Below are positions 4,851 through 50,899 of a stretch of 64,000 nt of DNA, in pieces. Position numbers and translations under genes: made by a program. The stretch comes from an uncultured Hellea sp. GTDB taxonomy: Bacteria; Pseudomonadota; Alphaproteobacteria; Caulobacterales; Maricaulaceae. The notes beneath the pieces are model-generated. The model was not told where the DNA came from, made no database searches, and saw only the letters and a program-made list of their open reading frames with translations. The stretch's first letter is position 1; each line of letters opens with the position of its first letter. The stretch is from the NCBI GenBank assembly GCA_964576765.1, contig CAZNWH010000001.1:15451-79450 (forward strand), written 5' to 3'.

Positions 4851-5747
4851 TTATTTTTTCTTACGCGTTTTTTCGAAGAAAGCTGAAATATGTTCTTTGG
4901 CAGACGGGCTGACTGCGAGGTCAGTAAGATACTGACTCTCTAAGGCCATCGCTGTTGCAAAATCGAGAGGCTTGCTTTCCAGGGCGCATTTCAAAATTGT
5001 TGCTGGAGCGGGCCCAGATGTAAACTCACCGGCCTCAATGCGTGTTTCAAACTCTTTTTGGATATCAGATAAGGTGTCTTCTGATGCTGATTGATCGGGC
5101 TTATCCCAAGGTTGAACGGAAGAGGGATTGCTCAAAATCCAAGCTTTGGCTTTAGCAAACATGTCATCATTGTCTTCGGCGATTTCATCGATCATTCCAT
5201 TTGCGAGCGACTCTTCAGGAGAGAACGCTTTGCCTGTAATGAGTATAGGCAGAGCCGCTTCTGTGCCGAGTAATCGCGTTAGGCGGATTACGCCGCCGCC
5301 GCCCGGTAGGAGGCCAAGCGTGACCTCAGGGACGCCTATAATTGTTTTAGGGTTTTTAGCCGCAATTCTATGATGGCATGAAAGGCAAATTTCATAACCG
5401 CCGCCTAGGGCTGCGCCATTGATAGCGGCCACAACAGGGAGGTCTTGAGTCTCGAGCGCTCGTAAGTGCTTTTTGATCAACTGCACTTTTTCAAAATAGA
5501 CGTCGCGAGTTTCATCGGTAATAGCCAGTATTTCTTGAAGGTCGCCGCCAGCAAAAAAAGTACTTTTTGCGGATGTTAAAATAACGCCTTTGTAAAGATC
5601 ACGCTCTTCGGACAGCTTTTGCGTTAAAGCCTTTAGCGCGTCAATAAATGCGCCATTCATAACGTTCACGCGTCCGTCCGCGTCATCCATAGTTGCAGTT
5701 AAGATACCGTCCGAATCGACGTCATATTGCATATAGGCTTTTGTCAT
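4851..5747 (-). CDS. Enoyl-CoA hydratase (stand-alone FadB/FadJ N-terminal domain)
   Basis: FFAGGDL, NGAALGGGYE, PEVTLGLLPGGGG. Confidence 0.9.
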   Translation of the reverse strand: MTKAYMQYDVDSDGILTATMDDADGRVNVMNGAFIDALKALTQKLSEERDLYKGVILTSAKSTFFAGGDLQEILAITDETRDVYFEKVQLIKKHLRALETQDLPVVAAINGAALGGGYEICLSCHHRIAAKNPKTIIGVPEVTLGLLPGGGGVIRLTRLLGTEAALPILITGKAFSPEESLANGMIDEIAEDNDDMFAKAKAWILSNPSSVQPWDKPDQSASEDTLSDIQKEFETRIEAGEFTSGPAPATILKCALESKPLDFATAMALESQYLTDLAVSPSAKEHISAFFEKTRKKK

Positions 5748-5813
5748 GATGCTTTCTTTTCGTTTTACGAATAACAAACTTCGATTTTTAAGTGACAGTG
5801 AAGAAAAAATGAC

Positions 5814-5834
5814 TTACTGGTTAACTAACAAGTT
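5814..5834 (+). promoter_or_regulatory. Degenerate copy of island operator (TTACTGGTTAACTAACAAGTT) in a divergent promoter
   Basis: Resembles the TTGCTTG-N7-ACAAGTA motif at 17180, 17202, 23998 and 28320. Confidence 0.4.
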
Positions 5835-5850
5835 TATAGGGGAATGAAAA

Positions 5851-6633
5851 ATGGATGACAAGAGCGATCTTGCCAAGTTGTTCGATTTGTCGGGTCAGCG
5901 CGCATTGATTTCCGGGGGAGGTACCGGGATAGGTCGACAGACAGCTTTAACATTCGCAGCTTATGGTGCTGAGGTGGTATTAGCTGCGAGGCGGCGCGAA
6001 AAACTCGAGGCAACGGTTGTTGAACTTAAGGCGAGCGGTGCAATAGCCAGTTGTGTGTCCATGGACATCACCAATGCTGACAGTGTCAAAAATGGACTGA
6101 AAGAGGCCACAGAGGGTGGTCCAATCACACTTCTAGTGAATAGTGCAGGTGTGAGTTCTAAAACTTTCCTGCTCGATACGCCTGAAGAAGAATGGGATCA
6201 GGTTCTGGGGACTAATCTCAAAGGCGGCTGGATGTTATGTCAAGCGGTTGCAAGGCAAATGATAGAGGCAGGGGTTGGCGGCAGCATTATCAATATTGCT
6301 TCTATTTTAGGGATAGGTTCTCAAAAAGGCGCAGGGCCTTACATGGCATCAAAGGCCGGTCTGCTTCATTTGACGCGAAATATGGCGCAAGAGTGGGCCC
6401 GTTACGGTATCCGCGCAAATACCGTGGCACCAGGTTACTTTATGACCGATATTTCTGAGCCTTATTTGAAAACCAAGACAGGGCAGGCGATGTTAAAGAA
6501 AATCCCACTTCGGCGCCTGGGTAATCTACCTGATTTGTCGGGTACAATGTTGCTATTGGCCTCTAAAGCTGGCGCATACATGACCGGAGGTGTGATTGTG
6601 GTTGATGGTGGTCATTCTATCACGCAGCTTTAA
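5851..6633 (+). CDS. SDR family oxidoreductase
   Basis: SGGGTGIG, YMASK, VDGG. Confidence 0.92.
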   Translation: MDDKSDLAKLFDLSGQRALISGGGTGIGRQTALTFAAYGAEVVLAARRREKLEATVVELKASGAIASCVSMDITNADSVKNGLKEATEGGPITLLVNSAGVSSKTFLLDTPEEEWDQVLGTNLKGGWMLCQAVARQMIEAGVGGSIINIASILGIGSQKGAGPYMASKAGLLHLTRNMAQEWARYGIRANTVAPGYFMTDISEPYLKTKTGQAMLKKIPLRRLGNLPDLSGTMLLLASKAGAYMTGGVIVVDGGHSITQL

Positions 6634-6647
6634 TAGAAAGTAGTCTT

Positions 6648-8426
6648 ATGAAATTCCATTTAGCACTCACGCTTCCTTTTGTCCTAATCGCGGTCGGGTG
6701 CAGTCCAGAAAGCTCTCAAATAACGGCGGCGTCCGAGGATTCGAATTGCTCTGACTTTAATGAGGCAAACAACCTCTATTGGGGCGATTTGCATGTTCAT
6801 ACGGCTTATTCGATGGATGCGTATATTTTTGGCACCAAAGCATCACCTACCGATACTTTCAACTTTGCTAAGGGGGTCACAGAGCAGCGCATGCCTGACG
6901 GAACACCTGTTAAGCTTGAAAGGCCTCTGGATTTTATGGCCATCACAGATCACGCGGAAACATTTGGTCTCATGCATATATGTACTGAGCCTGATCACGC
7001 GGGGTATCAGACTGATTATTGCCAAGAATTACGTGAGTTAAGCGGTCCCAATGCCAGAGCCTCTATAATGGCCTTTAGAAAACTCTTTGCGCCTATTTCT
7101 CGTGGTAAACAGGCCCCTTTATGTTCTCAAGAGGACTTAGACTGCGAAATAGCCGCTATCGATCGCTGGAATAATGTTCAAAAGGCTGCGAATACTGCTG
7201 ACAAGCCCTGCGGGTTTACCGCTTTTCTTGGGTATGAGTGGTCCGCTACTCCGAATGATGCCCACTGGCATCGCAACATTATTTTTAAAAGTGACGTTGC
7301 GACTGAAGGATTGATCGATTTTTTGAGATATCCGACTCCCGAACGTATGTGGGCCGAATTGGAAAGCCAGTGTAAGCCTGAGAATGGGTGTGACGTACTT
7401 GCCATTCCGCATAACACGAACCTGAGCGAGGGCGGAGGCTTCGATGTTGAGAATTCGTCGACTGTAGAGTTACGCCGCCGTGAAAGATATGAACGCCTGA
7501 TTGAAATAACCCAACATAAGGGAACGAGTGAGTGCTTGAACGAAAATTGGGATGACCGGAATTCTGACTGCGGATTCGAGCAGGCTCTCAGTGGAAGAAT
7601 GGTACAGGCTATTCGGCAAGACCCTTCTATCCGCGAAAAATACAATCGCAGTTTCAGCCGAAACATCTTGGGTAGAGGGCTTGAAAGTTACGCGTCAAAT
7701 GATGAGGGCATCAATCCTCTTCAAATCGGATTTATTGGATCAACAGATAGTCACTCTGCGACTCCCGGGCTCACAGAAGAAGCGTTTTGGAAAGGCGATT
7801 CATTTGGAGGTGGTGATGTTCATCGTCCGCGCTGGCTAGCGGGTCCGGGACCAGACTTTAGTCCGGGCGGACTAGTTGGCGTTTGGGCTAAGCAGAACAC
7901 GCGCGCTGATATCTTTGATGGCCTAAAGAGCCGCCATGCCTATGCAACATCTGGGACTCGTATTGCGCTGAAATTCGCGGTTATATCTTCTAAGAGTGAT
8001 GCGAAGACTTGCGGCGCAAAATTACGCGTGGGCAGCCCTATGGGCTCCACTCTTGTGACAAAGCAGACGGAAGCACCTGAGTTCGTTTTTAAAGCTACTC
8101 AAGATTTAGTACCTCTCGAGCGCGTTCAAATCGTCAAGGGGAGCTTGAAGGACGGGCAAGTTCAAGAAGAGGTCCTCACAATCAAGAGTGTCGACGGCGG
8201 ATTTAATAAGGCTTGTGAAAGCTGGTCTGATCCCAACTTTGACCCTAATGAACCCGCTTATTGGTATATGCGTATTCTCGAAGTCCCGACACCGCGCTGG
8301 TCGAAACTTCTTTGCAAAGAATTGGGCAATTGTGACAAATTCCCGAATGCGGATGTTATGATTAGCGAGCGCGCTTGGAGTTCGCCAATTTGGTATTTGC
8401 CGCCGCGTACGAGCGCTGAAAAATAA
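6648..8426 (+). CDS. DUF3604 domain (PHP-like metallohydrolase) lipoprotein
   Basis: Lipobox AVGC; YWGDLHVHTAYSMDA, AITDHAE, STDSH, ERAWSSPIWY. Confidence 0.88.
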   Translation: MKFHLALTLPFVLIAVGCSPESSQITAASEDSNCSDFNEANNLYWGDLHVHTAYSMDAYIFGTKASPTDTFNFAKGVTEQRMPDGTPVKLERPLDFMAITDHAETFGLMHICTEPDHAGYQTDYCQELRELSGPNARASIMAFRKLFAPISRGKQAPLCSQEDLDCEIAAIDRWNNVQKAANTADKPCGFTAFLGYEWSATPNDAHWHRNIIFKSDVATEGLIDFLRYPTPERMWAELESQCKPENGCDVLAIPHNTNLSEGGGFDVENSSTVELRRRERYERLIEITQHKGTSECLNENWDDRNSDCGFEQALSGRMVQAIRQDPSIREKYNRSFSRNILGRGLESYASNDEGINPLQIGFIGSTDSHSATPGLTEEAFWKGDSFGGGDVHRPRWLAGPGPDFSPGGLVGVWAKQNTRADIFDGLKSRHAYATSGTRIALKFAVISSKSDAKTCGAKLRVGSPMGSTLVTKQTEAPEFVFKATQDLVPLERVQIVKGSLKDGQVQEEVLTIKSVDGGFNKACESWSDPNFDPNEPAYWYMRILEVPTPRWSKLLCKELGNCDKFPNADVMISERAWSSPIWYLPPRTSAEK

Positions 8427-38875: not shown

Positions 38876-39203
38876 ATCGCCCGACCTGTTTAATGCGGTA
38901 ATGGCAATTCTTGGAGGCCGACTCACGCTGTTGAATGTCCAGCGTGGCTTGTGGAAACTCAGATAGCATTACCCCGGTATTAATCGACGTCACTTTCGCG
39001 AAATGTCATGAATATTCCATCATCCAGTTTCCCCTTATTACGTTTCGTTTATCTTGTTTTTGGATTTCACGAACGCATCTTATGCTTATCATTAGGACCT
39101 AAGTCAGTCTATGAATTTAATTTGATGGTAGGCCTAATGTTCGCGTCTTTTTATTGGTTTATTGATCCATGTTCACTTGTTAATTCTTCATTGGTAGGGC
39201 GCA

Positions 39204-39576
39204 TTCCGAAGCACGGCTTCGGAACCGGGCTCTCGTAAACGGAACCCGCGTTCCGCGGTTTCCGCCCGCCGGGCTTTGATCCCTTTCGCTCCTCGCTTTC
39301 GCTGCGGCGGTAAGCGTCGCGCTGCGCGCGCCGGCATTGATGTTGGTTCCCATCCTCGGGGGACGGGGGAGAGCGGTCGGCCAGTCTGCCGAAGGGCAGC
39401 CCGGCCGCAAGCGCTTTGGTGCTAAGTCGTTTTAATATCATAATTGCCGTCCTACCAAACCGCTTGCGCCCGGTCTTCATGACCCTTCGCCTGTCTGGCC
39501 TCCTTGCCGCTCCCCCCCGCCCCCCTGCGGGGGGAACGTGCTCGCGTCTAATTGCTTGGGCGCTGTGCGCCCAATT
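39204..39576 (-). promoter_or_regulatory. GC-rich hairpin cluster upstream of ardA; candidate ssDNA promoter/ssi (Frpo-like)
   Basis: Long imperfect IR 39346-39420 / 39454-39537 plus short hairpins at 39204-39224, 39241-39263, 39557-39575. Confidence 0.6.
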
Positions 39577-39602
39577 CTTGGGGCGGCATTGGAGACAAAC
39601 CG

Positions 39603-40187
39603 ATGACCGAGCACCTAGCCGCAAGTTCTGAATTTATTCCCTTTGGCTATCTGCCAAATTTTCACACCCCCAACCTGTCCACCATCAGAATCTACGTGGC
39701 CTGTCTGGCGGCTTACAATAATGGCTACCTTCACGGACGCTGGATAGACGCCACGCTAGGCGAGTCCCACATTTGGGATGAAACCCGCGCCATGCTGGCC
39801 GCCTCGCCAATTGAAGAGGCCGAGGAATGGGCCATCCATGATTATGAAGGTTTTGAAGGTGCGCCCTTATCCGAGTGGCAGTCTTTTGAAACCGTGGCCG
39901 ATATGGCCGAATTTATCGAAGAGCACGAGGCGTTAGGCGGCAAGTTGATTGAGCATTACGGCGGTGACCTAGGGGACGCCAAGACAGCCCTTGAACATTA
40001 CCACGGCGAATATGAGTCCCTAGAGGATTACGCTAGGCAACATGTTGAGGATTGCGGCCCACAAATACACGACAGCCTTGCGGCCTATATCGACTATAAA
40101 AGCATGGCCCGTGATTGGGAAATGTCAGGCGACATATTTACCATCGAAACCGCTTTCGATGAAGTCCACATTTTCGGGGCGTGGTAA
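39603..40187 (+). CDS. ardA: Antirestriction protein ArdA
   Basis: IYVACLAAYNNGYLHGRWID, EEWAIHDYEGF, YIDYKSMARD; acidic; GGAGA RBS. Confidence 0.95.
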   Translation: MTEHLAASSEFIPFGYLPNFHTPNLSTIRIYVACLAAYNNGYLHGRWIDATLGESHIWDETRAMLAASPIEEAEEWAIHDYEGFEGAPLSEWQSFETVADMAEFIEEHEALGGKLIEHYGGDLGDAKTALEHYHGEYESLEDYARQHVEDCGPQIHDSLAAYIDYKSMARDWEMSGDIFTIETAFDEVHIFGAW

Positions 40188-40387
40188 TGTCCCGCTATCA
40201 GGTCAGACCCCGAGAAGATGGACGCGGCCCCTATCGTTGGTGTCATGTTGTCAGAGCGCGAAACGGAAAAGGACTCCGTCAGGGCAATATTTATCGAACG
40301 CTTGGCGATGACCTGAACGTCAATGAAGTCAGCCGCCTCATCGGGCTTTGCGACAAAGCGGGTTTTGAGTTGCGGAGGGTGGCATGA
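40187..40387 (+). CDS. Hypothetical 66-aa basic protein
   Basis: TAATG overlap with ardA and ATGA overlap with the next gene. Confidence 0.65.
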   Translation: MSRYQVRPREDGRGPYRWCHVVRARNGKGLRQGNIYRTLGDDLNVNEVSRLIGLCDKAGFELRRVA

Positions 40388-40854
40388 CCTTCACGCAAAA
40401 ATTTGATAGCTATGTCTGCCTTGGCGATAGCATTTCCTGCGAGGTCGGAGCCTATACTGTCACGGCCCGTATTACCCATGACGACACACCCGACGCGCCC
40501 GATGAACGTCAAGACGGATTTTGGCCGAGCCTGTATAAAGATGATGCGGGATTTATTGGCGCGGGAAACGGGTGGCGGGAACGTTATGAGCGTCAACAGG
40601 CCAAGGCCGAAGCCATCATGGCTGCTTGGAAAAATGACGAGTGGTTTTATTGCGGCGTCATATTGTCAGTCAAAATTGAATCCCATGAACTTACCGACCA
40701 CGCCGCAAGCCTGTGGGGGATTGAGGCAAATTATCCCGATAGCCAAAATGACTATCTGACCGAGGTCGCGAACGATTTGCTTGGCGATGCCATTGAAGCG
40801 GCTAACGCGGAACAGGCGCGGCAATTGAAAATTCTATCGCGAGTTAATCCATGA
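40384..40854 (+). CDS. Hypothetical acidic protein (leading region)
   Basis: GGAGG RBS, ATGA coupling at both ends; AWKNDEWFYCGV, SLWGIE. Confidence 0.8.
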   Translation: MTFTQKFDSYVCLGDSISCEVGAYTVTARITHDDTPDAPDERQDGFWPSLYKDDAGFIGAGNGWRERYERQQAKAEAIMAAWKNDEWFYCGVILSVKIESHELTDHAASLWGIEANYPDSQNDYLTEVANDLLGDAIEAANAEQARQLKILSRVNP

Positions 40855-41099
40855 CCCGCAATTCTGAAATCACCGACGTCGGCGAACAGACCCTGATTGA
40901 TGAGGTTCGTCCCGTGACACTTGGTGAAAAACTGACCGCCCGAACAACGCATCCCCATTCGTTTTTGGCGGTTCCGAAAAAGAACCCGAATGCCATCCAG
41001 AAATCTTGCGATATTGGCCTTTTTGATGAGGTAGGCCGTGCGCAGATTGACCTTTGTGACCTCATCGCAAAATTGGAGACTTCCAAATGCCAAAAGTAA
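40851..41099 (+). CDS. Hypothetical 82-aa protein
   Basis: ATGA coupled; overlaps the parB start. Confidence 0.6.
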   Translation: MTRNSEITDVGEQTLIDEVRPVTLGEKLTARTTHPHSFLAVPKKNPNAIQKSCDIGLFDEVGRAQIDLCDLIAKLETSKCQK

Positions 41100-42913
41100 A
41101 AAATAAAGTAGTGAAAACCAGAAAGCGGATTCAGACACAGATAGCGCCCAAACCAATCGCAAGTGCGGTAAAAATGCTTCCCGTTGCCGATATGCATGTG
41201 AGTAAACTCAATATGCGGCACAGCAAGAAAGCCCCCAATATTGACGATATTTATCCAAGCATTTTAGCGGCAGGTGTCAATCAGTCCCTGCTTGTGCGCA
41301 AAGAGGGCAAAGGGTGGGGCGTGATTGCGGGACGCCGCCGACTATTTGCGCTAAAAAAGAAAGCGAACGAGACGGGCACACCCCAAAAAGCACCTTGCGT
41401 GATTATGGAAAGCGGCAATGTTAAAGCGGCCCGTGAGGCGTCCTTGCTTGAGAATGTGGCGCGGGTTCCCGCAACACAGCTTGAACAATTTGCGGCTTAT
41501 AAGGCTCTTGCAGATGCGGGCAAAGATGCCGCCGAGATCGGAATTGTCTTTGCCATCCCCGAAAAATCGGTGAAACGGGTCTTAGCCCTCGCTAATCTGC
41601 TCCCTGAAATCCTGTCCCTTTATGAAGCCGAGAAAATCAGAACGGGAACGGTTCAAGCCCTGACAATGGCCACCACCGAGCAACAGGGAAAATGGCTCGA
41701 GCTTTATCATAGTGATGATTACGCGCCGACAGATTATCACTTGAAAAACTGGCTCACAGGCGATGCGCAGATTGAAACCAAAGATGCGCTTTTTGATATG
41801 GCTGATTTTGACGGGGCTATCATCACAGACCTATTTGGCGATACCGAGTATTTTGCAGACCCCGACCAATTCTGGCCGCTCCAAAATACGGCGATTGCCG
41901 AGGCCGTGTCCGAATGGAAAGAACAGGGCTGGACTGATGTTATCGTGCTTGAACGCGGTTCGCGCTTTGACCGTTACGAGCACGGTAAGCGAGAGCGCGA
42001 AAATGGCGGTAAGATATATATCGAGGTTGGCCATGACGGAACGGTTACGCCTTATATTGGCTATCTGCCAAAGTCCGACATCAAGAAGATTGATAACATT
42101 CTTGGCCTGAATACGGACGGCAAACCCAAGGCCAAATCTTCAAAACCTGAAATGTCAGGCCCTATGGGACAATATATTGCTTTGCATCGTCACTCTGCCA
42201 TTCGTTCCGAATTGCTTGGCCATCCAAAGGTCGCGCTTCGATTGACTGTTGCCCATATGTTTGCAGGGTCACATCTGTGGAGCGTAGCACCGCAACCGAC
42301 CAAATCCCGAAAGGAGTCGACAACCGAATCTATTGCGGCAAGTAAAGGTGCTGATATTTTTGAAACCGAGCGCAAGGCGGTTTATGAGTTATTGGGGATA
42401 ACACCTTTTGACCACCCCTACAGCCCGTCCAAGCATTTAGCGGAGCAATCTATCCCGCAGATATTTGCACGGCTTTTGGAACTTGACGATGCCGTAGTGA
42501 TGCGGGCGATGACTTTGGCAATGTGCGAAAGTCTGACCCTAGATGCCGATGTTATCGAGGCAATTACCTATGCCGTCCCTGTGGACATGAGCAGCCTATG
42601 GGAACCCGATGATGCTTTCTTTGAAATCCTGCGCGATAAAGCCGTTATCAATGCAATGGTCAAAGACATTGCGGGTAAGTCTGTTGCGGACGGAGCTTTG
42701 ACCGAGACGGGCAAAAAACAAAAAGACATCATCCGCAACCGCATGGCGGGGCACGGGGTTAAAGAGGCTCGTCCCGATTGGCGTCCAAAGTGGATGCAGA
42801 TACCTGCGACCCCTTATCTTGATAAAGACACATGCCCACCCGCAAAGGCAGACGCCGCCGTATCGAAAGTGATGATGGCGAACCAGAAAAAGGATGCGGA
42901 TATTGCCGCCTAA
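41087..42913 (+). CDS. ParB/Spo0J N-terminal domain protein (long, leading-region type)
   Basis: GVNQSLLVR, VIAGRRRLFAL, ASLLENVAR, HTH; GGAGA RBS. Confidence 0.9.
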   Translation: MPKVKNKVVKTRKRIQTQIAPKPIASAVKMLPVADMHVSKLNMRHSKKAPNIDDIYPSILAAGVNQSLLVRKEGKGWGVIAGRRRLFALKKKANETGTPQKAPCVIMESGNVKAAREASLLENVARVPATQLEQFAAYKALADAGKDAAEIGIVFAIPEKSVKRVLALANLLPEILSLYEAEKIRTGTVQALTMATTEQQGKWLELYHSDDYAPTDYHLKNWLTGDAQIETKDALFDMADFDGAIITDLFGDTEYFADPDQFWPLQNTAIAEAVSEWKEQGWTDVIVLERGSRFDRYEHGKRERENGGKIYIEVGHDGTVTPYIGYLPKSDIKKIDNILGLNTDGKPKAKSSKPEMSGPMGQYIALHRHSAIRSELLGHPKVALRLTVAHMFAGSHLWSVAPQPTKSRKESTTESIAASKGADIFETERKAVYELLGITPFDHPYSPSKHLAEQSIPQIFARLLELDDAVVMRAMTLAMCESLTLDADVIEAITYAVPVDMSSLWEPDDAFFEILRDKAVINAMVKDIAGKSVADGALTETGKKQKDIIRNRMAGHGVKEARPDWRPKWMQIPATPYLDKDTCPPAKADAAVSKVMMANQKKDADIAA

Positions 42914-42961
42914 AGCCTAATGCGCTTGGCGCAATAGTCTCCAAACTTGCCAAGTGTAAGG

Positions 42962-42993
42962 GTCGCCGTGCTTCTGGCGCGGCGGCTTTTTTA
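42962..42993 (+). terminator. Intrinsic terminator after parB-like gene
   Basis: GTCGCCGTGC-TTCTG-GCGCGGCGGC followed by a T run. Confidence 0.75.
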
Positions 42994-43281
42994 TTGAGAC
43001 GAGTTCCGTTTTTTGATGGCGTCGTTAATCATGCCGACGCCCGTTTCAAAATGTTCAAGAATATCTTCAAGTTCCGTTTCAGTTTCTTCATCTGGTTGAG
43101 TAACGATACTGGTGGCTAAAATTCGCAGGAGTTCTTGAACTGAAATGGGGTCGAGTTCGATTTCAGGATCAAGTTCTTGAGGCTCAAAACTACCGTCTTG
43201 AATCACGGTTTCAAGCGCGAGATTGCCATTAGGCAACAGCATTAAATGTATTTTTTTCGTGTAGCCGCGTGGGTCTGCCAT
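42991..43281 (-). CDS. Hypothetical 96-aa acidic protein
   Basis: ATG 43281 with AAAGGGA RBS; 20 D/E vs 7 K/R. Confidence 0.65.
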   Translation of the reverse strand: MADPRGYTKKIHLMLLPNGNLALETVIQDGSFEPQELDPEIELDPISVQELLRILATSIVTQPDEETETELEDILEHFETGVGMINDAIKKRNSSQ

Positions 43282-43793
43282 ACGAATTATCCCTTTCAGG
43301 TAATGTTGGCCGTAAAGTGATAAACCTTGATTTTCAAAAAATAGCAAGAGCGCCAAATCTTAGGCTCTGGCATTGGCAGAGGTTTGATTGTCCAATTTAC
43401 CCAATTACATATGGCTTTCAGACAGGTTGTTACCTCTAAAATAATTTTGAAATAATGCTTGTTTACGTCCCTTATCGTCCTGGTTTCAATCACATCATCC
43501 GAAAGCCGGATGCTGCTAAGATAGAGAACCGTAGGACTCTATGCGCGCCGTTTGGGCCAGAGCCTTGGACATTAAACACGCCATCCGGCCAGAGCCGAAT
43601 GTGCATTGCTGTCCTAAGACGCGCCCTCGACAGGCCGTCTACGGTTTTCAAAGGGGCTTAGCAGTCCCCACGTTTTGATTTTGCAAAACGCAAATAAGAG
43701 ATAGGGCAGTTTGATAGGCCGCGCAACAAATCTTGGCCTTAATAAACCCGCCCAATATCTCTATCAGGCGGGCCTTTTTGAAGCGGGTTTCGC

Positions 43794-44123
43794 TTAGGGG
43801 CGGGGGTTCCAGACCATAGCGAATTTCTTCTCTTTTGTGTCTTTGACACGGCCCAGATTGGCATAGACCTTACGGTCAGAAATATTGGGGTGTTCAAAGG
43901 TCGAGGCAAATATAAGGTTTCCCGGAAGTTTCGCCCGCGCGGTTCCAGCCCGCGCCGACTTCCGCCAGACGTACGCCGAAGAAACGAAGTCAGGCTCCTG
44001 TGCCTTCATTAGTTTCGGAACACATTGGTGAGAACTCTTAAGGCGATCACTAACGCCCATCGCTAACATACCTTCGAAATTTCCGTTGTCAGTTCGCGTA
44101 ATATATCCAATCACATTGGTCAT
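43794..44123 (-). pseudogene. Inverted, internally frameshifted copy of the DUF736 gene (likely a structural pairing arm)
   Basis: N- and C-termini match 44426-44752; five single-base indels scramble the middle; spacing upstream of the ATG altered. Confidence 0.8.
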
Positions 44124-44425
44124 CGGGTTTTAATCGTCGGTTCCATTCGTTTGTCACATCCGGGCCAATTCCCTGCTACCCACCCTTAAATGAGCAGACA
44201 GATAAAAACCCTCCAACCCGTCAGGCCAACTATTTTCCTAGGCCGCAGAGCGACCTTATCGCGAAACAAAATAGTTTTCCTTCACAGGTGCAAACGCTAA
44301 TGGCGTTTGGCCTCCTTTATTTTTTGATTTTTATGGAAGGCGTTCTGGGCTTTTCTCTGCCCGCTTTCATTTGGGTGTCAGCAAGGGGATTGGCCCCGAC
44401 GCGACAAACAAATGGAGACTGAACC

Positions 44426-44752
44426 ATGTCCAAAGCAATTGGATATATTACACAAACTGACAACGGAAATTTCGAAGGCATGTTAGCGATGGGCGTCAAT
44501 GAACGCATCAAAGTTATCGCCAATGAGTCCAAAACTCCGAAGTCACAAGAGCCTGACTTTCGCATCTTCGGCGAACGTCTGGCGGAAGTGGGCGCAGGCT
44601 GGAACCGCACGGGCGAAACATCAGGGAAAGCCTATATCTCCCTGACCTTTGAACACCCCAATATTTCTGACCGTAAGGTCTATGCCAATCTGGGCCGTGT
44701 CAAAGGCACAAAAGAGAAGAAATTCGCCATGGTCTGGAACCCCCGCACCTAA
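44426..44752 (+). CDS. DUF736 family protein
   Basis: IGY..FEG, PDFRIF...EVGAGW...SGKAYISLTFEHP...YANL...MVWNP; GGAGA RBS. Confidence 0.88.
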   Translation: MSKAIGYITQTDNGNFEGMLAMGVNERIKVIANESKTPKSQEPDFRIFGERLAEVGAGWNRTGETSGKAYISLTFEHPNISDRKVYANLGRVKGTKEKKFAMVWNPRT

Positions 44753-44772
44753 GCGAAACCTCTTCAAGACGG

Positions 44773-44803
44773 CCCGCCTGATAGAAATATCGGGCGGGTT
44801 TTT
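44773..44803 (+). terminator. Intrinsic terminator of the DUF736 gene
   Basis: CCCGCCTGATA-GAAA-TATCGGGCGGG-TTTTT. Confidence 0.85.
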
Positions 44804-44857
44804 ATGCCAAAACCTATCTAAATAGTTGCAATTTTGCATAGCACGTTTCAAGCAAAA

Positions 44858-45667
44858 ATGGTAGTCAAAACCATGTCGGTAAAAGTGATTCAAAATATCT
44901 CTCCTTGGCATACCTATCCGTCTTGTACATGGGAGGTTTTGCGGCGAATAGAGTCCTATAAAAACCTCTATAAAAGCCTAGATTTACAGGGTTTTGAGAC
45001 GATCTCATTGGGAAGGAGTGCGAGCTGTATAGTCAGCCATAATTACTATCCTGAATTCGAAAAATACGGTCTATTATTCCCTGCAGACCCGGAGCTTTCA
45101 GCAGTAAATGCGCCGGTATTTTGGCACCCAAACCGCTTCCAAAATGTGGTCAGATTCCTTGTTATTCCAGAGGATAAAATAGACCCAAATGGCCTTACTA
45201 TTAATATCTCTGAATTTCCGGCACACCGCACCCATTTTAAAGCGCCTGACGGGGCGCATCATATACGGTTTTTAGGCGAAAAATTCTGGTTTCAACTCAG
45301 GTGTGCTGACCTGAATTTGGTCGACGAAAATGTGCATATTGGAATAGAAATAGACCGCGTAAATGATCTCGAAAAACGGCTCAAAACAGTGTCACAAATC
45401 GCAGGTATTTATGACGGCTCTATTGATATTTCAGCGCCGTTGCACACGCCTAAACGTCCTGATTTACACGAAAGTTCCACGCGTGTTTACGATATTCGAG
45501 CCGCTGGCGGAACATGGAAGGACGCAATTAATGCGCACTTCGGAGAAGATTATTTAAAAAATGATCCGGATGAATTTCAGTCCGCACGAACGACAGTGAG
45601 AAATAATTATACCCGCGTAGAATCCTATATTTACGGGAAATTTTTGAAGATTTTAGATCAAACATGA
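44858..45667 (+). CDS. FseA-like transcriptional activator (DUF6499 + DUF2285), single frame
   Basis: WEVLRR (cf. AWEFLRR), YGLLFPADP..APVFWHP, C-terminal HTH-like VYDIRAAGGTWKD; lies before rdfS-like gene; start uncertain. Confidence 0.75.
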   Translation: MVVKTMSVKVIQNISPWHTYPSCTWEVLRRIESYKNLYKSLDLQGFETISLGRSASCIVSHNYYPEFEKYGLLFPADPELSAVNAPVFWHPNRFQNVVRFLVIPEDKIDPNGLTINISEFPAHRTHFKAPDGAHHIRFLGEKFWFQLRCADLNLVDENVHIGIEIDRVNDLEKRLKTVSQIAGIYDGSIDISAPLHTPKRPDLHESSTRVYDIRAAGGTWKDAINAHFGEDYLKNDPDEFQSARTTVRNNYTRVESYIYGKFLKILDQT

Positions 45668-45810
45668 CCGTCAAAATTATTGAAACAGTCAATGAAATCA
45701 GAGGGGTGCTAAATCTAACAGTGTAATTTTAACCATTCACAACACCTCAAAAATATGCACCGATTCGCAATGTGGGAAGATAGATACACTGTCAACCACG
45801 TGAAAAGTGA

Positions 45811-46050
45811 ATGGATTTTATCGTGGGACGCGACTTGGAATGCCCTTTTGTTGATGTTGAGGAAGCCGCAAAGTTTCTCCATCTGGAGCCAAAGACATTA
45901 CAGAATATGCGATGGAATGGTATGGGGCCAAAATACCGAAAACATGGCCGAAAAGTTGTGTATCACAAAGACGATCTGTTCTCTTGGTCACTCGGAAATG
46001 AAATAAGCCAATCTGTAGGCCGCACTGAAAAGACCCCGCAACGTGTGTGA
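45811..46050 (+). CDS. RdfS/AlpA-like HTH excisionase (recombination directionality factor)
   Basis: EAAKFLHLEPKTLQNMRWNGMGPKYRKHGRKVVYHKDDL. Confidence 0.85.
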   Translation: MDFIVGRDLECPFVDVEEAAKFLHLEPKTLQNMRWNGMGPKYRKHGRKVVYHKDDLFSWSLGNEISQSVGRTEKTPQRV

Positions 46051-46489
46051 GAATTATACAATTGTCACTGAGCACATTGTTCGGGGTCTATGTAATCACC
46101 GACTTAGATTTGGCGTTAGCCAATCCGTAATCAATCGCCCAAACGGCATTACGCTCCACGCATTTGAGCCGCGCCAAACATTTGGCATGGTACGCTGGAA
46201 ACGCAATGACTTTGGCACAATTCTTTGGAATTTATACATATGTGAGGCCGCGGGATCGGGGCGCATAACGGAAATTCCGGGCGTGATTCCCGGTGCCCAT
46301 TTACTCTTTCGATCACGAGGGACGAAGGCTACGCGGCGCTTACTTGCTCGCCTGACAAGGCTTGAGAAAAGGATTGGCGGCGATCTTTCCGTCATTCCGG
46401 CAAATTACTGGCGCAAATACAATGATACTGAATTTAGGCGTGAAAAAGCACCAGTCGTAAATCCAATTCTTGAGTGTTCCGATGCTTAG
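46043..46489 (+). CDS. DUF2840 domain protein
   Basis: NHRLRFG, FGMVRWKRNDFGT, IPGVIPGA; conserved position before traF. Confidence 0.82.
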   Translation: MCENYTIVTEHIVRGLCNHRLRFGVSQSVINRPNGITLHAFEPRQTFGMVRWKRNDFGTILWNLYICEAAGSGRITEIPGVIPGAHLLFRSRGTKATRRLLARLTRLEKRIGGDLSVIPANYWRKYNDTEFRREKAPVVNPILECSDA

Positions 46490-47027
46490 AAACGCGGTTA
46501 TTGCCATGATAATGACCGGCGCGGTTATCGCCACGGCGAGCGATATGGTATTTCCGCCTAAACCGATATTGATTTACAATCCAAGCGCCAGTGCGCCTAT
46601 CGGATTTTACCGCTTAAAGAAAAATACTCTTCCCAAATTAGAGTCTCAGGTCGCCGCCTATGCGCCGGATTGGGCCCGAAAAATGGCGGATGAACGCGGA
46701 TATTTACCCTATGACTACCCTCTGATTAAGACGGTATGGGCGGTAGAGGGGGACGAGGTTTGTTACAATAATCATTCGGTTAGCGTCCCAAGACATCCTG
46801 TTATCTCTGTGCAGGCGCAGGATGGTTTGGGGCGCGATATGCCGGTCAGGTCGGGGTGTGCAACCCTTAAAGCCGGTGAATATTTTCTGGTGTCCCCGGA
46901 TGTGCAGACCGGATTTGATAGTCGATATTTTGGACCTGTCGGCGTTGAAAATATCATTGGAACTGTAGAGTTTTTGGGAAATTCAGATTCCGCCAATTCG
47001 GTTAAAACGGGAGAATTAGGGGGGTGA
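46482..47027 (+). CDS. traF: S26 family conjugal transfer peptidase TraF
   Basis: YNPSASAPIGFY, LIKTV, FDSRYFGPV. Confidence 0.9.
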   Translation: MLRNAVIAMIMTGAVIATASDMVFPPKPILIYNPSASAPIGFYRLKKNTLPKLESQVAAYAPDWARKMADERGYLPYDYPLIKTVWAVEGDEVCYNNHSVSVPRHPVISVQAQDGLGRDMPVRSGCATLKAGEYFLVSPDVQTGFDSRYFGPVGVENIIGTVEFLGNSDSANSVKTGELGG

Positions 47028-47039
47028 GTGTGGATTGGC

Positions 47040-47195
47040 GGAATATGCAAGATAAAAGGGCTGGGCCTGTCAGCCCTAAGCCATTGTCTGCACATCGTTT
47101 TTTCCGGGCCACCTCTTTGGAGGGTGGCCCAAGGTATTCTTCGCAAACCCCCATGGGAGTGGGGCCAGAGGGCGGGCCACCTGCGAGAATGCTAG
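47040..47195 (-). other. Predicted oriT with MOBP-type nic site (TATCTTG^C, nick between 47048 and 47047 on minus strand)
   Basis: One mismatch from the RP4 TATCCTG^C nic core; adjacent IR GGGCTG..CAGCCC (47058-47077) on its 5' side; more IRs to 47192; directly upstream of relaxase. Confidence 0.7.
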
Positions 47196-47217
47196 GTTTT
47201 TGCGGGGTTTTAGGATT

Positions 47218-49143
47218 ATGAGCGGTCGCGGCGAAAATCCATTCAATGTGAAACTCGGTAAGATATTTGCGCCCAGCGGGACAGGGCAGTTCTTGAGTCT
47301 GGCAGGCCGGGTTAAGCAAGCTGCGCGCGCGGGGTCAAAAAGAAAATCCGGCGGGGGGCGTTCGCGGTTCACACCGCAGGCAGAAGATATGTTTGTGCGC
47401 CGGGTTGTTGTGAAAGTCAGTCTTGTGCGTTTGGGAACGAAAGAGCTGGGCTATATGAAGCAGCACTTGGGCTATATTGAACGCGAGGGCGCGGGCCGTG
47501 AGGACGGCAAAGGTGTTTTGTATGATGATAATGGCATTGCGCCGGATCGATCCGAGTTTGAAGAGAGTTTCAAAGAAGACCGTCATTACTTCAAAATCAT
47601 CGTCTCTCCCGAAGATAGTAAAGACATGTCAAACCTCACCGGGTTTACGCGCGATTTTATGCGGCACATGGAGCGTGATCTTGAAACGAAATTAGAATGG
47701 GTGGCTGCCGATCATTATGATACGGCTGTGCCGCATACCCATATTGTTCTGCGAGGTAAAAAGGATGACGGTAAAGACCTTGTCATTCCCCGAAAATATA
47801 TCGCCCATGGCATGCGCGATCTGGCAGAAGAGCTCGTGACAAAAGAATTGGGCTATGTTCGGCAAATGGATGCGGCCATGAAGCTCGCCGCAATGGTTCC
47901 CCAGCAAAGATATACATTGCTGGATCGTAGCTTCGTCAATCAAGCCAAAGATAATATCCTCGATTTAACGGCGGGACCGCAGGCCGGGTCTGAAGCCATA
48001 TGGCGCATGGATATGGGCCGGCTTAAAAAACTTGGCCAAATGGGACTTGCCCAGAAAACAGGACGGCGCATCTGGAAACTTGATGAAGCGTTTGAGCGTA
48101 CCTTGCGCCGTATGGGCGAGCGCGGCGATATGATTAGAACCTATCAGCGCGCGATGAGCGAGGCCAAATTATCACGCCCAGTCTACAACGATGAGATTTA
48201 CGACCCGTTTGATGCTAAAGCCGCGCCTGTTGTTGGGCAGGTCATAAAAGCCGGCATCCGTGATGATGTGAATGATCGAAGTTATTTGGTTCTCGATACA
48301 ATAAATGGGGAAGCCCTTTATTTGGATGCAGGGGCGTCGTCCAATATCGAAGATGTTAAGCGCGGCATGATTGTTGAGGTTCGTCCAAAATCGATCACGC
48401 CTCGGCCTTCGGATTACACGATTGACAATATCGCGCATAAGCGCGGGGGACATTACAGCGCTAGCGCTCATATGGATGAAGATAGCGGAGCAAGACCACA
48501 GTTCATTGAAGCCCATATCAGGCGGCTTGAAGCCATGCGCCGCGCGGGTCATGCCGACCGTAATAGTGACGGAACGTGGAAGGTACCCGGGGACTATCTG
48601 AAACGCGCGACCCGTTTTGAAAAATCAAAGGCGTTTTCTAATCCAGTGGACATTCGTATTGTGTCCAATGGGCCGCTCAAGACACTCGCAAAAACAATGG
48701 GCCGAACATGGCTTGATGAACAGCTCCAACTTCCGGGTTCGGGAGAGGCGCCGGAAGGGTTTGGAGAGGATGTTGAAAGTGCCAAAGTCTTGCGCCGAAA
48801 GTTCCTGCTTGATGAAGCGATCATAGAAAAACTTGATGAGCGTCTGACCGCGGAGCATTTACAGACATTGGAAGCGCGAGACATCGCAGATGCAGCCGGA
48901 GATATTTCTGACGAGCTGGGTAAACCATATAGTCACACACCTTTACGCGGTAAAATAAGCGGGAAGTATCTCAAGGCAATTGACCGTCCTAGCGGGCGAT
49001 ACGGAATTATTGAGAGGTCAAAAGATTTTACGCTGGTGCCGTGGAGAGAGACATTAGAACGAAATAAAGGCCGGACGGTCACCGGCGATATTAGCGGGCG
49101 TTCAATTTCTTGGACGCTCACTAACGGCAGAGACCTTTCTTAG
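47218..49143 (+). CDS. VirD2-like/RlxS relaxase with DUF3363 domain (MOBP)
   Basis: RRVVVK, HLGYIEREG, FKIIVSPED, ADHYDTAVPHTHIVLRG (HUH), FTLVPW. Confidence 0.93.
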   Translation: MSGRGENPFNVKLGKIFAPSGTGQFLSLAGRVKQAARAGSKRKSGGGRSRFTPQAEDMFVRRVVVKVSLVRLGTKELGYMKQHLGYIEREGAGREDGKGVLYDDNGIAPDRSEFEESFKEDRHYFKIIVSPEDSKDMSNLTGFTRDFMRHMERDLETKLEWVAADHYDTAVPHTHIVLRGKKDDGKDLVIPRKYIAHGMRDLAEELVTKELGYVRQMDAAMKLAAMVPQQRYTLLDRSFVNQAKDNILDLTAGPQAGSEAIWRMDMGRLKKLGQMGLAQKTGRRIWKLDEAFERTLRRMGERGDMIRTYQRAMSEAKLSRPVYNDEIYDPFDAKAAPVVGQVIKAGIRDDVNDRSYLVLDTINGEALYLDAGASSNIEDVKRGMIVEVRPKSITPRPSDYTIDNIAHKRGGHYSASAHMDEDSGARPQFIEAHIRRLEAMRRAGHADRNSDGTWKVPGDYLKRATRFEKSKAFSNPVDIRIVSNGPLKTLAKTMGRTWLDEQLQLPGSGEAPEGFGEDVESAKVLRRKFLLDEAIIEKLDERLTAEHLQTLEARDIADAAGDISDELGKPYSHTPLRGKISGKYLKAIDRPSGRYGIIERSKDFTLVPWRETLERNKGRTVTGDISGRSISWTLTNGRDLS

Positions 49144-49165
49144 TTCCAATAATGAGGAAAGAAAA

Positions 49166-49243
49166 ATGAAAATACATGAAGCAATGGGATTGGGTGTTCT
49201 CGCCGCTTTAATAGCGTCATGCGGTGCATCACTTGGAAACTAG
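49166..49243 (+). CDS. 25-aa ORF consisting of a lipoprotein signal peptide (mini-lipoprotein or remnant)
   Basis: GAGGA RBS; MKIHEAMGLGVLAALIASCGASLGN*. Confidence 0.45.
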   Translation: MKIHEAMGLGVLAALIASCGASLGN

Positions 49244-49252
49244 GTAATTATT

Positions 49253-50032
49253 ATGAGTGATGAGGAAATTCAGATTAAAAGTGCGATCGTCCAAATCAGG
49301 GGACATGCCGTCATACTTGCAAATGACCTTGCTCGTTTTTTTGATACGACGGTCAGCCTCATAAATCTTTACCGCAAGCGTAATGGGGAAAAATTTACAT
49401 CTGACTATGCTTTTCAGTTAGCGTCTGAGGAGTGGAAAATCTTGAAATTGCAAAATGCTATTTCAAGTGAGGGGCATGGAGGTTCCCGTCATTTACCCTG
49501 GGCTTATACCGAGCATGGTGTCGCGATGATGTCCATGGGCATGAAATCTGACAATGCGGTCAGACTTTCCAAGGTAATTATTGATACCTTTGTGGATTAC
49601 CGGCGCGGCACACTTCCATCTAAGCCATTCATCACCGGCCCCAATGCAGTCAAACACCGCCGTTCCTTGCAGGAGAAACTTGTCGTGCAGATGGAGCGGT
49701 TGCTCGACGTCGAATTACCCTCATCAGAGGGGCAGACGGTACGCGACGAGCTTGGAACAATCGCGACGAAGTCGCTGGCGCATATTAAAGCGGTTTTGGA
49801 CGGACCGGTGAAAACCAACGAAAAGATTACGGCGGAAGTCTCGATGATATTGGCTGAAGCCGAAAAGCTCTATGCTGAAACACGCAAGCTAAACGCCGAA
49901 ACGGACAATTTGGTATTACAGAACTATCAATTGCGGCTGGACGTTATCCGCGATCTTCGCGAAATGGCACAGCAGCTTGAGAGGGATGATTGGATAGAAG
50001 TGTTCGATGATGGGTTTGGTAAAATTGAATAA
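49253..50032 (+). CDS. ORF6N domain DNA-binding protein
   Basis: IRGHAVILANDLA, KRNGEKF..YAFQL, GGSRHLPWAYTEHGVAM. Confidence 0.88.
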   Translation: MSDEEIQIKSAIVQIRGHAVILANDLARFFDTTVSLINLYRKRNGEKFTSDYAFQLASEEWKILKLQNAISSEGHGGSRHLPWAYTEHGVAMMSMGMKSDNAVRLSKVIIDTFVDYRRGTLPSKPFITGPNAVKHRRSLQEKLVVQMERLLDVELPSSEGQTVRDELGTIATKSLAHIKAVLDGPVKTNEKITAEVSMILAEAEKLYAETRKLNAETDNLVLQNYQLRLDVIRDLREMAQQLERDDWIEVFDDGFGKIE

Positions 50033-50150
50033 TATTTACTATGAGCGCTTTTGATGGGATGCGTACTGAGGGGGCAAAGCGGACGTCAGCGTAGTCAAAT
50101 CTATGCTCTCCACTTTTCTGAATTTAGCCGGGCACTGATAGCAATGGTGC

Positions 50151-50899
50151 TTACTCGGTTTCTATGTTCGGCAATTCCTGCGCAATTACATCATTTTGTA
50201 AAAAGGGATAGATCACTGATGCCCAGACGGCATATCCCTCCGCATTTAAATGCAATCCATCCCATGTAAATAAACCTTCGTTAGGTTTACCGTTATCTGA
50301 CAACAATTGGGAGGTTGTGTCGATAAACGTCACATAGTTATGCTCGGATGCAAATTTCGAAACTAATTGATTGGCAGCGTGGCCCTCGGGCCAAACCTTC
50401 CAGCGAGCCTTTGTGGGAGAAATTGAGATATAATATATTGGAATGTCGGGAAGGTCGTTATGAATGGCTGTGATTAGGTCCTTGGTCCTTTTAAACACGT
50501 CTTTTCCGGTTTTACTGTTCCCAGCTACGCCGTTGATGTCATTGGTGCCGACAAACAGCACGACCGCTCTGGGTTGAAAGGGCGTAATCAGGCGATCGAC
50601 ATAATATGTAACGTCTGCAATTTTTGAACCGCCAAAGCCGTGATTTACGACGGGGTAAGGCGCCATATCTTTGTCGAGCGTCTCCCATTTCCGAATGCTG
50701 GAGCTTCCCGTAAAGACTATTACGTCTTTCGGGAGTTCGCTCTCATATCTTGCCTCGATAGCGGCAATGTCAGCGCTCCAAAATTCTGGATTCTCGTTCT
50801 TGCTAAAGCTCTGAAATTTAGAATACCGAATGCCAGAAAACCAGCGAGCAAGGTAAAGGTTACTAATACAGACCAAAAAATCCATTTTTTCAGATTCAT
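50151..50899 (-). pseudogene. SGNH/GDSL esterase, frameshifted near 50800
   Basis: GSSS, NHGFGGS, GTND, DGLH motifs; RBS-bearing signal-anchor start (ATG 50899) is out of frame with the catalytic domain. Confidence 0.7.

Follow-up and report, generated by a model that had tools for sequence, protein, structure and literature searches.

The window (the whole 64,000-nt stretch of DNA from an uncultured Hellea sp. that was analyzed) carries, all on the plus strand, ardA (39603-40187), a ParB-like gene (41087-42913), a DUF736 gene (44426-44752), an HTH_17 gene in the rdfS position (45811-46050), a DUF2840 gene followed by a TraF-like S26 peptidase gene (46043-47027), and an RlxS-like relaxase gene (47200-49143). 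The leading genes ardA and parB, like the HTH_17, DUF2840, and traF genes, were identified by profile matches, and the 108-aa DUF736 product matched Pfam PF05284 with an E value of 2e-19. The relaxase was assigned to DUF3363 and matched NF041267 (E value of 4e-186), with a score of 620 that falls below the curated cut-off of 850 bits. With this qualification, the rdfS-traF-oriT-rlxS core is present together with DUF2840 and DUF736. The same order of rdfS-like gene, DUF2840, traF, oriT, and rlxS-like gene is described for ICEMlSymR7A/Tn4371-like elements (PMC8627217, PMC11963761). DUF736, which is msi110, is reported on all ICEMlSym/Tn4371-like elements, "often in duplicate" (PMC8627217, PMC11963761; Colombi 2021).

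The window's contig terminates 288 nt beyond the window, and a traG-trb-DUF736-HTH_17-integrase block was found on a separate contig of the same genome (C60, L247:291-14027). A third DUF736-HTH_17 pair adjoins hipA-hipB on contig C25 (L248:41-2370). Among the best-scoring matches listed, the closest named relatives were marine Caulobacterales. A 277-aa open reading frame between DUF736 and the rdfS-like gene (44834-45667) had no Pfam or NCBIfam match and occupies the place of the DUF2285/FseA activator of related elements, while the interval from the ParB-like gene to the copy described below contains an AT-rich minus-strand frame of 121 aa (42991-43356) with no family. Right behind the relaxase gene is an ORF6N-domain gene (49253-50032), after which comes cargo for the degradation of sugars and sulfate esters (sulfatase, GH3, GH2, and AraC).

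A predicted oriT (47040-47080, minus strand) is located between traF and the relaxase gene. It consists of a 7-bp inverted repeat (AGGGCTG/CAGCCCT) and an adjoining minus-strand nic-like motif, TTTATCTTG^C (47048/47047), which has one mismatch to the MOBP nic consensus YATCCTGY (PMC3772185). Of 79 loci with a relaxase, 65 have the nic-like motif on the DUF736 template (minus) strand and 4 have it on the plus strand; restricting it to 450 nt gave 40 and 7, respectively. Relaxase genes are usually the last to enter the recipient (PMC11541004). Given the strand of the motif and this order of entry, the minus strand, which is the template for DUF736, is likely nicked and transferred first, as the original prediction had proposed. 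DUF736 would then have a leading-region position, with the nic-like motif on its template strand and the relaxase gene on the far side of the predicted nick.

DUF736 is preceded by an inverted copy of itself. In the computed alignment, the right arm (44347-44810, plus strand) starts with 79 nt upstream of the DUF736 CDS and continues through the gene and its terminator, and the left arm (43733-44211, minus strand, aligned as 44211-43733) is a non-coding inverted copy of the same three parts. The arms are separated by 135 nt and align with 407 matches, 31 transitions, 22 transversions, and 23 gap columns. Their identity is thus 88.5% without gaps and 84% with gaps, in line with the duplicate of about 88% identity some 135 bp to the left that was originally described; the 16 transversions and five single-base indels noted within the CDS were also reproduced. 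Identity is patchy, being 97% over 117 nt and 86% elsewhere. The gene ends in an intrinsic terminator-like hairpin with a GAAA loop and a T tract (44771-44804, plus strand), which was detected by RNA folding and missed by a pattern scan, and the copy ends in one with a GAGA loop and a T-rich tail (43744-43775, minus strand; RNA fold z score of -3.9). In the 2.47-Mb genome, the DUF736 arms form the sole inverted repeat of at least 80 nt with arms no more than 5 kb apart. If the minus strand folds back, the left arm is predicted to be the non-template strand and the minus strand of the right arm to be the template.

An assembly artifact was rejected as the source of the arms. A contig from sequencing run X9 spans 43873-44673 (the inner arms and the loop) with one difference, and a 62-nt tract identical in both arms had double depth. 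Since X9 belongs to the same study as a possible source sample, stronger support comes from complete arms in genomes that consist of a single contig (L032, L039, L045, and L047-L050).

A protein-coding copy was rejected as well. Stop codons interrupt the start frame in 51 of 57 copies, and the window copy is one of the six exceptions. There, the five CDS indels reopen the frame, a point missed originally, to give 109 codons (43794-44123, minus strand) whose middle third is out of frame and which score 17 bits against DUF736, below the cut-off. In view of the stops in the related copies, this open frame looks like a product of chance.

Distribution of the arm among DUF736 loci

DUF736 was found in 48 of 151 genomes of the family, and 20 of the lower-scoring matches were taken with their flanks. 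Further loci came from the best 80 of 281 and the best 80 of 304 matches in genome and metagenome contigs and from wider samples. Matches scoring below 100 bits were set aside, as were identical genes and the copies, which left 155 loci.

The arm was present upstream of DUF736 in all 20 fetched leading-region loci of the family (scores of 143 to 720). The downstream control scored at most 66 in every locus, and an arm was never found there. Under lenient scoring, 57 of the 155 loci had a long arm, with an excess of wobble-type differences (see below) in 53 and the reverse in 3. A stricter test treated five parts separately in the 129 leading-region loci with sufficient flank. Adjacent inverted copies, which the original prediction had proposed to look for in related elements, were common by this measure: the promoter region was paired in 94 loci, 28 of which paired all five parts, from the promoter through the whole gene to the terminator. 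Another 30 loci paired nothing beyond the promoter, and no pairing was detectable in 26. Thus, the long arm is either dispensable or decaying.

DUF736 paralogs in other contexts lacked the arm: none of the 23 genes behind trbI and none of the 7 located behind traF had one (scores of 20 to 40, equal to background), nor did eight additional control loci. The usual duplicate in ICEMlSym/Tn4371-like elements is such an intact, armless second paralog behind trbI, and it differs from the shadow copy. The arm was also absent at the tested paralogs of the window's own genome on C60 and C25, the latter sequence being without an upstream flank.

Outside the trbI and traF contexts, 28 of 52 DUF736 genes from distant clades scored at least 55, including those of plasmids from Mesorhizobium (L213) and Agrobacterium (pAt, L214) and of two genomes outside the class (L260 and L261). 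A different hairpin of about 250 nt, which has a side loop and whose tip is A/T rich, is common to L213, L214, and Sinorhizobium pSymA (L212), where it precedes DUF736; faint gene-long arms were also seen in L213 and L214. Across 95 long loci, no other leading gene had a gene-long shadow, the one exception being a second DUF736 gene in L112, where a tandem pair (5461-6954) has an upstream arm for each member (scores of 650 and 140). L281 contains two near-complete, divergent DUF736 genes about 600 nt apart; these lack a wobble bias and may represent another kind of arrangement. A search of viral contigs returned one weak fragment.

Strand bias and divergence of the copy

Within the CDS in the window, the transitions from gene to copy comprised nine C>T, eight A>G, two G>A, and no T>C. 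The original prediction had pointed out that 17 of these 19 would form G-T wobble pairs only if the minus strand folds on itself, and the computed alignment returned the identical count (p=7e-4). Its extension of the bias to the flanks also held, with 26 of 31 transitions over the whole arm being of the wobble type (p=2e-4). In 16 cluster representatives, C>T exceeded G>A 2.5-fold (p=1e-7) and A>G exceeded T>C 1.7-fold (p=0.013) in clean columns, and a wobble excess was found in 15 of the 16. Comparison of folding energies, also proposed originally, favored the same strand: DNA folding of 43680-44860 gave -474.6 kcal/mol for the minus strand and -439.1 kcal/mol for the plus strand, a difference of 35 kcal/mol. 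The minus strand was the better predicted fold in 15 of the 16 representatives; in control loci it also folded better, by 0 to 8 kcal/mol.

Because single-strand deamination produces the same classes of change, neighboring genes were checked. Their four-fold sites had skews of 0.78 to 1.2 (parB, traF, relaxase, and DUF2840) and, over the 281 sites of ardA, 1.8; deamination would require a skew of about 4. This low skew, together with the lack of bias on the gene arm, disfavors element-wide deamination of single-stranded DNA. When changes were polarized by relatives, the wobble excess was confined to the copy side (261:133) and was missing from the gene side (21:32, p=0.17). As it arises in the copy only, the bias is weaker proof than the original prediction took it to be: it argues against strand-wide mutation, and it could equally result if the copy is transcribed and mutates in the process. 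Transversions were mixed, with G.G in excess of C.C (108 versus 50), which favors the minus strand, and C.T in excess of G.A (124 versus 66). We regard the wobble bias as supporting rather than decisive evidence. As for the suggestion that it always follows the nic strand, the nic-like motif lies mostly on the template strand; with one layout in all loci, following the nic strand is inseparable from following the template strand. Four-fold sites of DUF736 are C-rich (0.52 versus 0.38 in parB for the 16 representatives), making the template arm G-rich, as tolerance of pairing would favor; codon bias is an alternative.

The copy tracks its own gene. It was nearest to that gene in all 16 cluster representatives and in 43 of 57 loci; when two genes are 40% different, most of the differing sites in a copy agree with its own gene (e.g., 91 of 127). 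Copies had diverged less than the four-fold sites of parB in every one of 17 pairs, and the four-fold sites of DUF736 had also done so in 15 of the 17, in a comparison for which some traF and relaxase values may be in the wrong frame. Gene conversion alone, or codon constraint, could contribute to this slow divergence. L031 and L057, both assembled from metagenomes, have perfect tracts of 258 and 210 nt between their arms, which may reflect recent conversion or assembly collapse. Together with the patchy identity, the perfect tracts suggest episodic gene-to-copy conversion. They leave unsupported the earlier proposal that scattered mismatches serve to limit cruciform formation, and selection against perfect arms likewise finds no support.

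These patterns bear on an alternative in which only the first ~100 bp matter, as an ordinary Frpo-like promoter, and the long arm arises as a side effect of repeated template switching, or of gene conversion spreading outward from the hairpin, and then decays. It would account for the 30 loci pairing the promoter alone, for patchy identity and perfect tracts, and for the absence of a wobble excess in gene-side changes. Its difficulty is the consistency of the arm, which was found in each of the 20 family loci mentioned above, in most of the top loci ends 55 to 105 nt past the stop codon, immediately beyond the terminator, and keeps its position between DUF736 genes only 53 to 60% alike. Moreover, the proportion shared between relatives is higher for wobble states than for A.C states (153 versus 52 shared, 217 versus 101 unshared). 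We consider this alternative unlikely; that the long arm has a selected role is, taken overall, probable.

A split promoter-like box and the conserved core

The copy carries a predicted -35-like hexamer, TTGGAG (44211-44216, minus strand), and, 18 nt from it, a predicted -10-like hexamer, CATTTA (44187-44192, minus strand), which was assigned by position and conservation and has the family form TAGGTC. On the gene side, the facing sequence is GTTCTG-N20-CATTTG (44342-44373). In the family, the copy strand has GGTT, 16 to 18 nt, and TAGGTC at twenty-odd nucleotides out from the core, while the gene side reads ACGGTC with a spacer 1 to 4 nt longer. These boxes were chosen by score, so that the comparison is partly circular. 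Independent anchoring used the common GGT[CT], which 33 of 59 non-redundant loci have on the copy as well as on the gene side; TA preceded it in 29 of the 33 copies and in none of the 33 genes. The TA of the box comprises the two bases that nucleate promoter opening. A mismatch kept exactly there while the rest of the arm is homogenized is what a hairpin promoter predicts.

Our data thus support a promoter-like box that is split and becomes complete only in the hairpin: the -35 and -10 elements are rebuilt in the predicted stem and absent in intact form from the gene side. The case is weaker in the window's subgroup, whose TTGGAG-N18-CATTTA includes a weak -10 match. Promoters without -7T are usual in Alphaproteobacteria (PMC8407463). 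The best promoter score of unpaired sequence did not separate the arms (24 versus 25, with a threefold search range on the gene side), and a scan for Escherichia coli-type signals recovered neither the proposed boxes nor the terminator.

The predicted promoter is directed into the gene, 44 to 56 nt before the ATG, with a conserved GGAG site. This placement weighs against a hairpin that serves the DNA itself, as a priming site for the second strand or as a shield for incoming single-stranded DNA. Frpo is described as also priming replication, and the conserved branched core could bind a protein; a duplex track, however, should displace RNA and so disfavor priming. Such a service is highly improbable.

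At the hairpin tip is a conserved core (44228-44276) composed of an A/T stem, AACTATTTT/AAAATAGTT, around CC..TCGCG. Immediately upstream of the -35 box, the template arm is predicted to loop out a side branch (44291-44346), which consists of a 7-bp hairpin (44291-44309) and a T-rich stretch. The core (A/T stem, CC..TCGCG..CAAAA) had a single orientation in 100 of 153 loci and was reversed in none. This asymmetry weighs against a gene-pseudogene switch operated by programmed inversion, as Milman et al. 2023 (PMC9881135) predicted for DUF736 loci. Their predicted gene-altering inversions likewise involve a gene and an inverted pseudogene-like repeat, and DUF736 appears in their enrichment table with an odds ratio of 7.3; one supplementary file of that study contained no DUF736 text. 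Recombination between arms could also explain their homogenization. On the other hand, the copies are broken by stops, no flipped allele was seen in the 153 loci, no recombinase was found among 31 scanned proteins of the window, and contigs of four runs, which drop rare variants, contained no strand-changing joint. The wobble bias and the split promoter point to fold-back instead, and we hold an inversion switch to be extremely improbable.

C(GNA)G triloops have an unusual stability in DNA that they do not show in RNA. In 86 core regions, they occurred 36 times on the minus strand versus twice on the plus strand, compared with 7 versus 10 in a coding control; the window's own core contains none. 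GNRA tetraloops, which do not discriminate between DNA and RNA, were minus biased as well (20 versus 0), and cUUCGg loops were not (1 versus 2). A second minus-strand hairpin lies upstream of ardA (39280-39610; z scores of -8.2 for the minus and -4.4 for the plus strand). It stops at the ardA start, carries C(GCA)G triloops, and is a likely candidate for a second, short single-strand promoter. Further small palindromes are found at 39200-39280.

The loop types also help to judge whether the copy is an ordinary double-stranded unit producing a leftward non-coding RNA, with the wobble excess being transcription-associated mutation on its non-template strand. The promoter-like box and terminator hairpin are intact on the copy, the bias is limited to the copy side, and a preprint (bioRxiv 10.64898/2026.10.21.760802) lists a covarying motif directly upstream of DUF736 (cluster #378,112) as a candidate ncRNA. 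Left unexplained would be the upstream region of the gene, which is complementary to the copy promoter in 94 of 129 loci, and the excess of DNA-type triloops without one of cUUCGg loops. In addition, an RNA from the copy would have the same sense as the mRNA, its antisense pairing being the disfavored plus-strand one, and Rfam covariance models gave no match up to an E value of 1 over 38900-50200. We judge a non-coding RNA very unlikely. Cluster #378,112 is probably the core or the promoter stem seen here; the preprint interprets it as a candidate ncRNA, and the available main text does not contain the terms "ssDNA," "single-stranded," "conjugative," "Frpo," "plasmid," or "oriT."

Proposed fold-back of the incoming strand

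The arms, their conserved layout, the split promoter-like box, and the strand biases would all be explained if the minus strand folded DUF736 and its inverted copy into a hairpin of about 0.5 kb, acting as an Frpo-like single-strand promoter with a gene-long stem. On sequence evidence, we consider this reading probable as a whole and its promoter component very probable. The strand, the orientation, and the fold-back proposed in the original prediction agree with an arm found only upstream, a nic-like motif on the template strand, and the split box, from which transcription is predicted.

The strand would enter leftwards from 47047, delivering the terminator, the gene template, and the core first and the copy afterward. 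On arrival, the copy would zip outward from the core and provide the non-template strand carrying the -35 and -10 boxes, and the hairpin would keep the gene and terminator double stranded in the recipient. RNA polymerase would likely elongate along the gene-long duplex, release mRNA, and terminate rather than stall in an RNA-DNA hybrid. After second-strand synthesis, the gene would be silent from the hairpin promoter, because the gene side lacks the boxes. Occasional copying from gene to copy may keep the arms matched. We lean, by a small measure, toward this full scheme, in which a complete duplex transcription unit forms on entry, gives repeated released mRNA, switches itself off, retains its shadow by conversion, and is widespread.

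The benefit of a gene-long arm may lie in elongation. According to a paper on an archaeal enzyme that cites bacterial work, bacterial polymerase on a single-stranded template makes only RNase H-sensitive, hybrid-trapped products of ~20 nt, and RNA release is driven by rewinding of the non-template strand (PMC2241882). We infer that a gene-long partner would lift this barrier. Necessity of the long arm does not follow, since leading genes of F and IncI1 are expressed from short hairpins (PMC9849209, PMC12672017) and 30 loci of the present family pair the promoter alone.

The locus resembles Frpo1 and Frpo2 of F and ssi1-3, or class 2-3 single-stranded DNA promoters, of IncI1 in its leading-region position and in having the template on the transferred strand (PMC9849209, PMC12672017, PMC11541004). 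As described for these systems, a long stem-loop is predicted from a single strand, rebuilds the -35 and -10 boxes, and lies upstream of establishment genes, here with ardA and the ParB-like gene nearby. It differs in that Frpo and ssi elements are intergenic (searched for as regions of 50 to 350 bp or windows of 300 nt), whereas the DUF736 stem spans the CDS and terminator and is not confined to a non-coding segment. The DUF736 system also requires a gene-long non-coding copy that coevolves with its gene, has alphaproteobacterial boxes (TAGGTC), and belongs to RlxS/MOBP-type elements. With a different host class and different boxes, sequence homology to Frpo of F or ssi of ColIb is unlikely. 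The available text of the ICEMlSym/Tn4371-like accounts (PMC8627217, PMC11963761) mentions neither an inverted copy nor a single-stranded DNA structure. We found no account of a whole-gene fold-back in the literature covered, which did not extend to subscription journals.

DUF736 itself is predicted to be a small eight-stranded beta barrel (structure model pLDDT of 90). No solved relative was found by sequence or by Foldseek. With VIA, the model matched generic beta barrels without a telling match (best Z of 7.0, rmsd of 4.1), and in the Atlas, DUF736 matches DUF736 only. One of 22 DUF736 members had a single weak match to a single-stranded DNA-binding family in PHROGs (E value of 0.022).

The inverted DUF736 copy is real and widespread, and its predicted promoter role would make it a variant of single-stranded DNA promoters in many conjugative elements of Alphaproteobacteria. 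The range of such promoters would thereby widen beyond enterobacterial plasmids to include RlxS-type elements, which are related to the symbiosis islands of rhizobia, with a sequence signature for locating further examples. Two published computational signals at DUF736, a predicted inversion and an ncRNA motif, would be reinterpreted. Promoter-only hairpins leave polymerase elongation and mRNA release on incoming single-stranded DNA unexplained; since the family holds natural long-arm, promoter-only, and no-arm versions of one gene, this question is directly testable. If the proposed scheme is true, the gene-long stem would be a second solution, besides short Frpo hairpins, for expressing genes from single-stranded DNA, and DUF736, a core gene, would be singled out as needed immediately after transfer and marked as an establishment factor of the first minutes.
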